A DNA stretch of 5,550 bases from a virus (Duplodnaviria > Heunggongvirae > Uroviricota > Caudoviricetes): the IMG/VR virus record IMGVR_UViG_2534682095_000012, one strand, 5' to 3'. The position numbers and the translations under genes are program-made. The notes beneath the pieces were generated by a model, which saw only the letters and a list, made by a program, of their open reading frames with translations, did not search any database and was not told the DNA's origin. Below are positions 1 through 5,550 of the stretch, piece after piece. The number at the start of each line of letters is the position of its first letter. Within the stretch, counting starts at the first letter, position 1.

Positions 1-38
1 ATAAAGTTTACGCATAATTACCTCTCGCTTCTCTGCAA

Positions 39-64
39 TAAAAAAGGCGTCATTTCTGACGCCC
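39..64 (-). terminator. Rho-independent terminator immediately downstream of J
   Basis: On the minus strand a 7-bp GC-rich stem (plus 46-52 GGCGTCA pairing with 57-63 TGACGCC) with a 4-nt loop is followed by a T6 tract (plus-strand A run 40-45). It lies about 18 nt after the J stop codon (82-84). On the plus strand the hairpin is preceded, not followed, by the A run, so it is oriented for minus-strand transcription. Confidence 0.65.
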
Positions 65-81
65 GTTATGGGTTATAAAAT

Positions 82-3435
<3,354 letters not shown>

Positions 3436-3449
3436 TCCTCACACTCCAT

Positions 3450-3477
3450 AAACAACAAAGCCGCCCAAAAGGCGGCT
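3450..3477 (-). terminator. Candidate intrinsic terminator after the lipoprotein gene, upstream of J
   Basis: The minus strand reads GCCGCC-TTTTG-GGCGGC (plus arms 3460-3465 and 3471-3476, extendable to 7 bp by a flanking A:T pair), followed by TTTGTTGTTT. It sits between the lipoprotein stop (3502-3504) and the J ribosome-binding site. Confidence 0.55.
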
Positions 3478-3501
3478 CATGAGTTACGACAGGATTAACT
3501 A

Positions 3502-3840
3502 TTATTTACATGCATTAACACTATCAGCAAAAATTTTTGGCGTTAATGCTGGTACACGTTCATAAAGAGTAAAACTACTGCCATTTCCTGCTTTTTTGAT
3601 ATCAAGCACAACATCATATCCCCCCATAGCCTGTGGAACTAAAAGGCTTACCCCATTCTCAATAGGAAGGGATGTTATAGGTGTTCCATTACCAGCCCAT
3701 TGTCTGGATATGCAGCCTGACAATTCATCAATATTTTTTAATGAATTACCTTCCATTACAGGTTTTCCGGATTTTACGTAATCCAAAGATTTACATCCTG
3801 TTAAGGCAATAATCGTGCAGAATAAAATCGTTTTGTTCAT
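3502..3840 (-). CDS. Small secreted lipoprotein (112-aa precursor) encoded in an AT-rich insertion between tail genes I and J; function unknown
   Basis: This is the ORF-track entry 3502..3852; I place the start at the ATG at 3838-3840 (MNKTILFCTIIALTGC...) rather than the upstream TTG. The N-terminus has a basic n-region (MNK), a hydrophobic core (TILFCTIIAL) and a lipobox L-T-G-C, so the mature protein would begin at the acylated Cys. The +2 residue is Lys, not Asp, which by the Lol sorting rule suggests the outer membrane. Two further Cys residues (SGCIS, NACK) could form a disulfide. A hand count of 3501-3560 gives about 32% GC, against about 65% in J at 1561-1620. No strong Shine-Dalgarno sequence is visible. 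Confidence 0.7.
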   Translation of the reverse strand: MNKTILFCTIIALTGCKSLDYVKSGKPVMEGNSLKNIDELSGCISRQWAGNGTPITSLPIENGVSLLVPQAMGGYDVVLDIKKAGNGSSFTLYERVPALTPKIFADSVNACK

Positions 3841-3879
3841 ATAGCTAACCAATAGAATAATTATCAGTGTTCGATATAA

Positions 3880-3907
3880 ATATTAAATTAGTTAGAACAT
3901 GAGTAAA
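3880..3907 (-). promoter_or_regulatory. Candidate sigma70-type promoter for the lipoprotein gene
   Basis: In the AT-rich I-to-lipoprotein spacer the minus strand reads TTTACT (plus 3902-3907), a 16-nt spacer, then TAATAT (plus 3880-3885), about 40 nt upstream of the ATG at 3840. Both hexamers match consensus at 4 of 6 positions. AT-rich DNA gives many such matches, so this is weak; an alternative -10 is GATAAT nearer the start. Confidence 0.2.
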
Positions 3908-3913
3908 ATAATA

Positions 3914-4555
3914 TTACCGCCCAATTACCACAACCTGACCACCATCCCCTTCATCTGCCGTGCTGATCTCCTGAGATGCCACACGTGACCCCACGCGCAT
4001 TTCACCGTACAGAACAGGCAGGACATTGCCCTGGGCAACCATGTTATCCAGTGAGGAGAAATAGGTGTTCTGTTTGCCGTTATCCGTTGTCTGTGTACGG
4101 GGAGTTCTGGCTTTCGGTGCCAGCATCTGCGCCACACCACCAAGCGTCATCGCCGCACCCATTGAAAAGAGAATGTCACTGAAAGCGATACTGATCCCCG
4201 GCATCCAGATTGCCGTAGCAATCAACGCCGCACCCAGCACCGCCTGAAACACACCGCCACTTTTTGCTCCCGCAAGACGCGGCACGATGTGGATCACGGC
4301 ACCATTTGCCAGCGGCTCATTAAGACGGGATGATAATTCGGTTTCTCCTGCATCCCGCCCGGCAATCCGTACCTGATACCAGCCATCGCTCAGTTTCTGA
4401 CGAAACGCCGGGAGCTGTGTGGCCAGTGCCCGGATGGCTTCAGCCCCCGTTTTCACACGAAGGTCGATGCGGCGGCCAAATCGTTGCAAATCCCCGTAAA
4501 GGCAGATGCGTGCCATGCCCGGTGACGCCAGAGGGAGTGTGTGCGTCGCTGCCAT
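3914..4555 (-). CDS. I: Tail assembly protein I (lambda gpI family), 213 aa
   Basis: The ORF translation MAATHTLPLASPGMARICLYGDLQRFGRRIDLRVKTGAEAIRALATQLPAFRQKLSDGWYQVRIAGRD...QEISTADEGDGGQVVVIGR matches lambda gpI at both termini as I recall it, with a divergent, slightly shorter middle. The ATG at 4553-4555 is preceded by AGAGG, and the TAA stop is at 3914-3916. The 5' end overlaps the 3' end of K, as in lambda. Confidence 0.9.
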   Translation of the reverse strand: MAATHTLPLASPGMARICLYGDLQRFGRRIDLRVKTGAEAIRALATQLPAFRQKLSDGWYQVRIAGRDAGETELSSRLNEPLANGAVIHIVPRLAGAKSGGVFQAVLGAALIATAIWMPGISIAFSDILFSMGAAMTLGGVAQMLAPKARTPRTQTTDNGKQNTYFSSLDNMVAQGNVLPVLYGEMRVGSRVASQEISTADEGDGGQVVVIGR

Positions 4556-5200: not shown

Positions 5201-5550
5201 TTACTGCGAAAGTTTGTTAATGGAAAGGAAGCCGCCAAAGTTGCCGACGTTATTGCGAAACTTACAGCCACTCAGGCATTTGCTGCATTTATCCTTCGTG
5301 ATATCGGACGTCGGCTGGTCATATTCATCCGCGACAGCCGGACCGCTATAACCGCACTCGTCACCGCGATAGGTCCAGGTGCAGGTGTTGGCCAGCATGA
5401 TACGTCCCGGAAAAACAGCGCCATCCGTTTCCGTCGGCGTGGACAGTACAAAGGAGGCACTCACCGCGCTCAGTTCGCTGCACTGCTCGATGCGCCAGCG
5501 GCTGATCACCTCCTGCTCCGGATCGGCGTCTCTGTTTCCGTTGACGAAGT
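5201..5550 (-). CDS. L: Tail tip protein L (lambda gpL family), C-terminal part; 5' end lies beyond the window
   Basis: The minus-strand frame is open to the window edge. It translates as ...FVNGNRDADPEQEVISRWRIEQCSELSAVSASFVLSTPTETDGAVFPGRIMLANTCTWTYRGDECGYSGPAVADEYDQPTSDITKDKCSKCLSGCKFRNNVGNFGGFLSINKLSQ, matching the gpL C-terminus as I recall it, including the Cys-rich region. The TAA stop is at 5201-5203. The Met at 5509 in the ORF track is an internal GTG (Val) codon, not the true start. Confidence 0.85.
   Translation of the reverse strand, partial: FVNGNRDADPEQEVISRWRIEQCSELSAVSASFVLSTPTETDGAVFPGRIMLANTCTWTYRGDECGYSGPAVADEYDQPTSDITKDKCSKCLSGCKFRNNVGNFGGFLSINKLSQ

Follow-up and report, generated by a model that had tools for sequence, protein, structure and literature searches.

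Temperate phages alter their hosts mainly through morons, and most of the small envelope products that these elements encode have no known function. By the criteria of Juhala et al. (2000, summarised in PMC3594210), a moron is extra DNA between adjacent genes that deviates in composition, has its own promoter and terminator, and is expressed from the prophage. The original exclusion moron, the one that encodes HK97 gp15, occupies the slot between the tail chaperone and tape-measure genes (PMC3594210). Among small phage lipoproteins, Cor has been demonstrated experimentally to exclude phages (PMC3594210), and the exclusion exerted by Lpp021 and Lpp010, from the mEpimmI phages, tracks the usage of OmpA or LamB (PMC11893012). 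Here, we analyze a stretch of DNA of 5,550 nucleotides (nt) from a tailed virus (IMG/VR record IMGVR_UViG_2534682095_000012), referred to below as the window, in which the tail genes I and J are separated by an AT-rich insert with a gene of its own. We are highly confident that this insert is a moron of 420 base pairs (bp) in the I-J spacer that encodes a lipoprotein of 112 amino acids (aa), a member of PHROG 914. Tail-region morons are already well known as a kind of element; what rises above the routine in this case is the recurrence of the family at three junctions of the tail module together with its rapid divergence.

An AT-rich insert in the I-J spacer

The genes of the window all lie on the minus strand and together make up the distal portion of a tail operon of the lambda type (Table 1). 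The gap between I and J (3436-3913) is 478 bp long compared to 60 bp in lambda, where I ends at 15444 and J starts at 15505, in agreement with the original prediction, made from the window alone, that this gap is enlarged over a lambda spacing of a few tens of base pairs. In the alignment with lambda, homology extends about 15 bases past the stop codon of I and restarts 43 bases ahead of the start codon of J; the boundaries of the insert are accurate to about +/-7 bp. A 7-bp direct repeat, ACTCATG, flanks the insert (left copy, 3904..3898; right copy, 3484..3478) and could reflect microhomology at the joint or chance. The empty site rebuilt by fusing the flanks over a single copy of the repeat is 400 nt long and aligns as a single piece of 401-402 nt in 102 isolated phages.

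The base composition of the insert sets it apart from its surroundings. The GC content of the whole gap is 35.4%, and that of the insert slightly lower (Table 1), compared to 57.3% for I and 56.4%, on average, for J. Elsewhere in the stretch, no 420-nt segment falls below 45% GC, and inside J, no 60-nt segment is at or below 35%; the compositional break is well beyond the local range. The earlier hand counts for 3841-3900 (21.7%) and 3501-3560 (31.7%) proved exact, whereas the figure of about 65% given for the inside of J was too high, 64% being reached only locally (1300-1700).

The insert is present in 337 of 5,426 complete Escherichia coli genomes (349 places), and the flanks of the junction are present in 4,293 of these genomes (8,704 places), which corresponds to an occupancy of about 4% of the comparable I-J junctions (349 of 8,704 places). 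None of the 102 isolated lambda-like phages that have this junction and none of 50,697 phage records contain the insert. Given the low occupancy, the insert is accessory, as had been proposed; a homologous gene at this position is not a feature of most lambdoid phages, lambda included. The extra DNA lies between genes that are adjacent in relatives and differs in composition from the genes around it, which supports its interpretation as a moron, an accessory cassette gained by horizontal transfer. A near-identical form occurs in about 6% of the complete E. coli genomes, the carriers including ST95-type extraintestinal pathogens (UTI89, S88 and APEC O1) and O104:H4 outbreak strains, and the identical protein is encoded on at least 1,000 contigs. 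The 551 bases that span the I-J gap match at 100% a prophage that adjoins trpA/yciEFG in UTI89, S88, APEC O1, IHE3034 and many more E. coli.

The hairpin and T-tract that the original prediction placed downstream of the gene, as the terminator of the cassette, do exist: the hairpin, GAGCCGCC-TTTT-GGGCGGCTT, has a 9-bp GC-rich stem and is followed by TGTTGTTTAT. However, they are not borne by the cassette. A homologous hairpin is present in lambda (15466-15496, or about 2467-2497 of L002) and in all five other empty-site phages (Lambda_2E9, Turner, phiSTEC1575-Stx2k, PhiR49_1 and ev099), at the same distance from the ribosome-binding site of J as in the window. The empty-site form is AAACCGCC-TSC-GGGCGGTTT followed by TGTCRTTTAT; in the window, the loop is different, and a compensatory change has put a G-C pair in the place of one A-T pair of the stem. 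Thus, the hairpin predates the insertion, and the insertion point lies directly upstream of this pre-existing element. Recombination within the stem could have occurred, with the 5' arm and the loop of the window hairpin arriving together with the insert. In lambda, the hairpin could stabilize the RNA, cause the polymerase to pause, or act as a terminator that the antiterminated polymerase passes; in insert-bearing prophages, it may still stop transcripts initiated in the insert. The E. coli insert, then, has no terminator of its own, its hairpin being homologous to the resident spacer, and the lesson for moron annotation is that a hairpin beside an insert need not be part of the insert.

Family members at other junctions (see below) do have terminators of their own, and lambda has no spacer at those junctions. 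There, a strong hairpin with a T-run follows the gene within 15-25 nt, and such a structure is found in 10 of the 12 loci examined, in every slot type, so that the gene-plus-terminator layout is typical of the family. Because a terminator at this position would serve no purpose for antiterminated transcripts, its near universality provides indirect evidence of some non-antiterminated expression, which would come in addition to the late programme.

The proposal that the leader upstream of the gene contains a promoter fared less well. The GC content of the stretch between the gene and I (3841-3913) is 20.5%, and a scan of the minus strand against the promoter consensus produced no site at 9/12 or better. 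A relaxed scan yielded two candidates at 8/12, TTTACT-16-TAATAT (3907..3880) and TTTAAT-16-GATAAT (3887..3860), which is no better than chance. When the 90 nt upstream of the gene were compared between junction types, 2 of the 7 comparisons gave p of about 0.03, uncorrected, and MAFFT left the upstream regions of copies at different junctions unaligned. A conserved mobile promoter common to the different junctions was rejected, marginal local matches being all that was found. Several copies between K and I have about 30 nt of upstream sequence with a good Shine-Dalgarno. Any promoter in the leader is therefore putative.

As established for lambda, genes that lie co-oriented in the Q-antiterminated late operon are transcribed at the late stage of lytic growth. 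The co-orientation of the lipoprotein gene with I and J therefore points to transcription along with the late operon. The scheme that we envisage has two branches: during lytic growth, the lipoprotein gene would be transcribed with the Q-antiterminated late operon, and in the lysogen, transcripts starting in the AT-rich leader, not being antiterminated, would end at the resident I-J hairpin. Such a stop would leave J silent in the lysogen.

The lipoprotein gene and its surroundings

As originally predicted, the insert contains a single small open reading frame (ORF), which reads in the same direction as I and J. It starts with ATG at 3840..3838, the start that is also annotated in UTI89 and used by all homologs, and stops at 3504..3502; in UTI89, the annotation says no more than 'hypothetical protein'. 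At the N-terminus, MNKTILFCTIIALTG-C, the protein has a lipoprotein signal peptide that ends in a canonical lipobox (MNK-TILFCTIIA-LTG-C16) and is encoded at 3840..3793, with the codon for Cys16 at 3795..3793. The lipobox, LTGC, conforms to the pattern [LVI][ASTVI][GAS]C, and Cys16 is invariant in 52 family members. The +2 residue is Lys, and GCKSLD is invariant within the close subfamily. Under the '+2 rule' of the E. coli Lol system, Asp at +2 avoids sorting to the outer membrane. Lys at this position thus predicts outer-membrane sorting, and the product is a predicted outer-membrane lipoprotein.

From end to end, the protein matches PHROG 914, a family of unknown function (E 7.3e-33; residues 1-112 on positions 1-118 of the 118-position profile). 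Only the lipobox Cys16, C43 and C111 are invariant across the 52 members; P27, K35, W48 and G63 are nearly so. C43 and C111 probably form a disulfide, and the conserved cysteines fit a periplasm-exposed domain with one such bond. The mature domain comprises about 96 residues, and the AlphaFold2 (AF2) model (pLDDT 83.7, pTM 0.76) has a beta-alpha-beta4-alpha topology. Fold searches returned only generic alpha+beta matches. Sequence searches were similarly unproductive: no Pfam family matched the window protein at E<=0.1, nothing in Pfam matched the 52 members at E<=0.01 except for three single stray hits, and neither NCBIfam nor the PDB sequence profiles gave an assignment. An NCBIfam match to VirB7 (E 0.08) was discarded as confined to the signal peptide.

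Among 56 E. coli copies of the gene, we identified 13 alleles that differ by 11 synonymous and 6 nonsynonymous distinct changes, with no stop codons, for a rough ratio of nonsynonymous to synonymous substitution rates (dN/dS) of about 0.17. Frameshifts are present in 3 of 59 E. coli-type copies (L060:3279-3613, L061:10001-10335 and L062:10001-10338). The gene is real and maintained under purifying selection.

Table 1. Features of the window, in the order of transcription
Feature	Position	Strand	Basis or remarks
L	about 5509..5201	-	
K	3' end at 4453	-	
I, tail assembly gene, 213 aa	4555..3914	-	Pfam PF06805 Lambda_tail_I, E 4.4e-24
AT-rich insert, 420 bp, 34.3% GC	3478-3897	-	alignment with lambda; missing from lambda-type empty sites
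AT-rich leader	3841..3897	-	weak promoter-like hexamers; no clear Shine-Dalgarno (..TTGGTTAGCTAT ATG)
Lipoprotein gene, 112 aa (MNKTILFCTIIALTGCKSLD...)	3502..3840	-	ORF; annotated UTI89 coding sequence WP_001332187.1
GC-rich hairpin and T-rich tract, resident I-J spacer	3448..3478	-	terminator-like scan and fold
J, tail tip / host-specificity gene, frame broken	82..3435	-	each of the two large ORF fragments has Pfam J domains

Of the flanking genes, I ends with the stop codon TAA at 3916..3914, and its product is 81% identical to lambda I and 100% identical to that of UTI89. The J domains matched are FNIII-A_GpJ, Ig_J, Phage_Tail_Tip and Ig_GpJ_C, with the gene starting at 3435. Compared to the intact J of UTI89, the frame is wrecked by 23 small deletions between 1807 and 2570, of 1-7 nt each and about 45 nt in sum, which equals the 44-nt shortfall of the window against its best complete-genome match (96.1%). 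Such damage reflects either the decay of a defective prophage or low-quality sequence. The lipoprotein gene beside J is intact and identical to the UTI89 copy. On the 3' side of the J stop codon (84..82), the minus strand contains a terminator-like hairpin, GGGCGTCAGAAATGACGCC followed by TTTTTTATT, at about 66..39. Also within positions 1-81, a ribosome-binding site and an ATG at 15..13 open a frame, MRKLY..., that is the start of a Lom/Ail-family gene and continues past the edge of the window; in UTI89, lom lies 68 nt 3' of J.

Recurrence and divergence of the family in tail modules

Homologs of the window protein with 48-62% identity are found in Klebsiella, Enterobacter, Kluyvera and Jejubacter. 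A profile search yielded 125 representatives at 50% clustering, nearly all of them 105-125 aa long, with relatives also in environmental metagenomes; a scan of genome contigs for related loci returned a single locus. When the tail proteins were mapped on 73 related loci, the gene was always found on the strand of the tail genes, in one of three slots. The E. coli clade occupies the slot between I and J. The slot between K and I is used in L004 (Kluyvera), L064, L072, L073, phage Fraca and L093, as well as in L063, where the gene lies within a 4.9-kb insert; the L074 copy is located directly upstream of I. The third slot, between the tail chaperone and the tape-measure gene, is occupied in L065 and L068-L070. 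At the slots other than I-J, the GC content of the homologs is 36-43% versus 48-59% for the flanks, with the exception of L075, at 52%.

The association with the tail tip is kept down to about 26-30% identity. The lipoprotein itself diverges fast relative to its neighbors: between L004 and Fraca, both with the gene in the K-I slot, the lipoproteins are only 26% identical, compared to 92% for K and 86% for the N-terminus of J. This disparity points to cassette replacement or diversifying selection. Among the flanking proteins, I was the one whose divergence followed that of the lipoprotein most closely.

Some of these loci contain additional small genes. In L063, the K-I interval (6050-10935) holds a multi-gene insert with an ORF resembling a helix-turn-helix (HTH) regulator (9515-9898), the PHROG 914 lipoprotein gene (9971-10312) and, directly after it, a gene for a second, unrelated lipoprotein of 149 aa (10406-10855; MMKKLAIIGFAALVLSGC...). 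In Fraca (L003, LR597645.1), a PHROG 914 relative with another small ORF ahead of it lies between K and I (5725-6336), and an annotated cor exclusion gene is located downstream of J (11579-11812), so that a single tail module contains two lipoprotein genes. For several distant members, the contigs are too short to provide gene context. A marginal member (E about 1e-3), P0140 at L081:5766-6131, is chromosomal, between an aminotransferase gene and dapD, a placement that hints at descent of the phage family from a bacterial lipoprotein.

Possible functions and comparison with known systems

The functions originally suggested for such a cassette, namely, lysogenic conversion, exclusion or defence, are plausible candidates. 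Reasoning by analogy, we tentatively propose that the lipoprotein plays an envelope-level role in phage-phage competition, a possibility that we consider worth pursuing without regarding it as probable. The lipoprotein would exclude superinfecting siphophages or would shield the progeny from re-adsorbing to lysing cells, acting at a step independent of the receptor recognized by the J C-terminus, for example, the penetration of the outer membrane and periplasm by the tail tip. Built into the tail module, a gene for exclusion would travel with the tail type on which it acts, as in the case of HK97 gp15. This reading is suggested by the placement in the tail module at three slots, the arms-race-like divergence, and the precedents of exclusion lipoproteins. 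A more specific version, in which PHROG 914 is a new class of tail-module-embedded outer-membrane lipoproteins that block tail-tip penetration independently of the receptor-binding domain, move between the I-J, K-I and chaperone/tape-measure junctions, and diversify in an arms race, is doubtful. Should the protein prove to be an exclusion factor, its class of lipoproteins would have no relation to Cor, Llp and Lpp, and there would be consequences for the host range of phages used in therapy against pathogenic E. coli.

Several observations weigh against a role in competition, starting with the relationship to J. A protein that masks the receptor of its own phage should co-vary with the J C-terminus. 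Instead, lipoproteins that are 99-100% identical precede at least four J C-terminal types. The C-terminal third of J in the window (82-1000) is a different allele from that of UTI89, with 49-78% nucleotide identity and in-frame indels of 36, 27, 21 and 15 nt; the window-type end is very common, and no fewer than 1,487 complete E. coli genomes carry it at >=95% identity. In L062, the C-terminal part of J (from about residue 760) is 54-58% identical to the UTI89 type. Likewise, the lipoproteins of L004 and L072 are 81% identical, whereas their J C-termini, at about 34%, are barely alignable. Coupling to one J receptor-binding domain was accordingly rejected; the difference between the window and UTI89 shows mosaic exchange of the receptor-binding ends downstream of an identical insert. 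Without this coupling, classical masking of the phage's own receptor is unlikely, and if exclusion occurs, the step involved is probably independent of receptor choice.

Other adverse points come from expression, homology and distribution. The 8/12 hexamers in the leader are at the chance level for 21%-GC DNA, and the ribosome-binding site of the E. coli copy is weak. No family among the PADLOC-DB defence models matched the window protein at E<=1, and the closest solved fold is that of a Francisella virulence lipoprotein, Flpp3. Homology to Cor was rejected, since an hhalign comparison of the family profile with Fraca Cor aligned 30 columns over the signal peptide and lipobox, and so was homology to Lpp021 and Lpp010, for which hhalign aligned 16-20 signal-peptide columns at a probability of 34-45%. 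Fraca carries both a PHROG 914 relative and cor, and some distant members of the family lie outside tail modules, one of them in a housekeeping neighborhood. Finally, the insert-bearing genomes contain 2-5 lambda-type I-J junctions each, so that there is no obvious sign of exclusion of other lambda-tailed prophages from them.

The protein might instead be a lysogenic-conversion or host-fitness factor that contributes to serum or complement resistance, adhesion, or the response to envelope stress, like Bor and Lom; if so, it would be a new Bor-like conversion gene. We consider this unlikely, albeit a serious contender. The protein shows no sequence relation to Bor/Iss or to any other Pfam family, and its likeness to Flpp3 is a generic fold match at 6-9% identity. 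The relatives in phages and prophages of Kluyvera, Klebsiella, Enterobacter and Jejubacter, and in metagenomes, are not pathogen-specific, and the lasting placement at the tail tip combined with very fast divergence is better suited to phage-phage conflict. Somewhat less likely still is a late lytic gene, silent in the lysogen, whose exported product would aid release by blocking re-adsorption to debris or by conditioning the envelope. In favor of such a gene, no promoter above chance was found; the K-I copies, with about 30 nt upstream and a strong Shine-Dalgarno, are operon-internal in style, the orientation is invariably that of the tail genes, and the K-I position is kept down to 26-28% identity. 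However, the gene is dispensable for virions, given that 102 of 102 isolated plaque-forming lambda-like phages with this junction are without it, and occupancy is only about 4%. Furthermore, if the gene were purely antiterminated, a strong terminator after it in 10 of 12 loci would be difficult to account for, and the AT-rich composition is typical of acquired cargo.

That the insert is non-functional filler, a decaying remnant with a functionless ORF, is very improbable and is largely refuted by selection and conservation. In its favor are the frameshifts in 3 of 59 E. coli-type copies, the weak ribosome-binding site, and the fact that H-NS often silences AT-rich foreign DNA in E. coli. Such decay is at odds with a dN/dS of about 0.17 and no stop codons in 56 copies, as well as with 125 representatives that share invariant cysteines, a confident fold, and the exact protein on at least 1,000 contigs.

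We also compared the E. coli insert and its product with the described systems. The resemblance to Flpp3 (DUF3568) and to the BamC N-terminal domain is limited to the fold, at 6-13% identity and with no sequence-profile link, and equally good fold matches were obtained with unrelated KA1 and DUF302 domains. Tai (tail assembly inhibition) was dropped as a candidate: the phi80 genes concerned, orf63 and orf64, are outside the tail-tip module, and the window protein is a secreted lipoprotein. Bor/Iss of lambda is, like the window product, a prophage outer-membrane lipoprotein of about 100 aa that is borne by a moron. In lambda, bor adjoins the lysis genes. The proteins differ in that the window protein has no match to the Pfam Lambda_Bor model (nor to the Pfam model for YebO/HK97 gp15), and its fold matches go to other proteins.

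Closer in setting are Cor (phi80, N15, HK022 and T1), Lpp021 and Lpp010, which are also small phage lipoproteins encoded in or next to the tail genes. These proteins are 72-82 aa long and are encoded downstream of J, on the opposite strand in the case of Lpp021 and Lpp010 (72 and 82 aa), whereas the PHROG 914 member is 112 aa long and is encoded upstream of J on the same strand. The specificity of the Cor/Lpp proteins tracks the receptor; in contrast, the lipoprotein of the E. coli insert is uncoupled from the J type.

The gene 15 moron of HK97 differs in its product, gp15 being a YebO-like inner-membrane protein without sequence relation to the predicted outer-membrane lipoprotein described here, and in its signals: in the E. 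coli insert, the terminator is resident junction sequence, and the promoter is only a candidate. Nevertheless, the two elements share the same anatomy, namely, extra DNA of deviating composition between conserved late genes, one small envelope-targeted protein, and a hairpin after the gene. Moreover, the PHROG 914 relatives in L065 and L068-L070 sit in the very same slot as HK97 gene 15.

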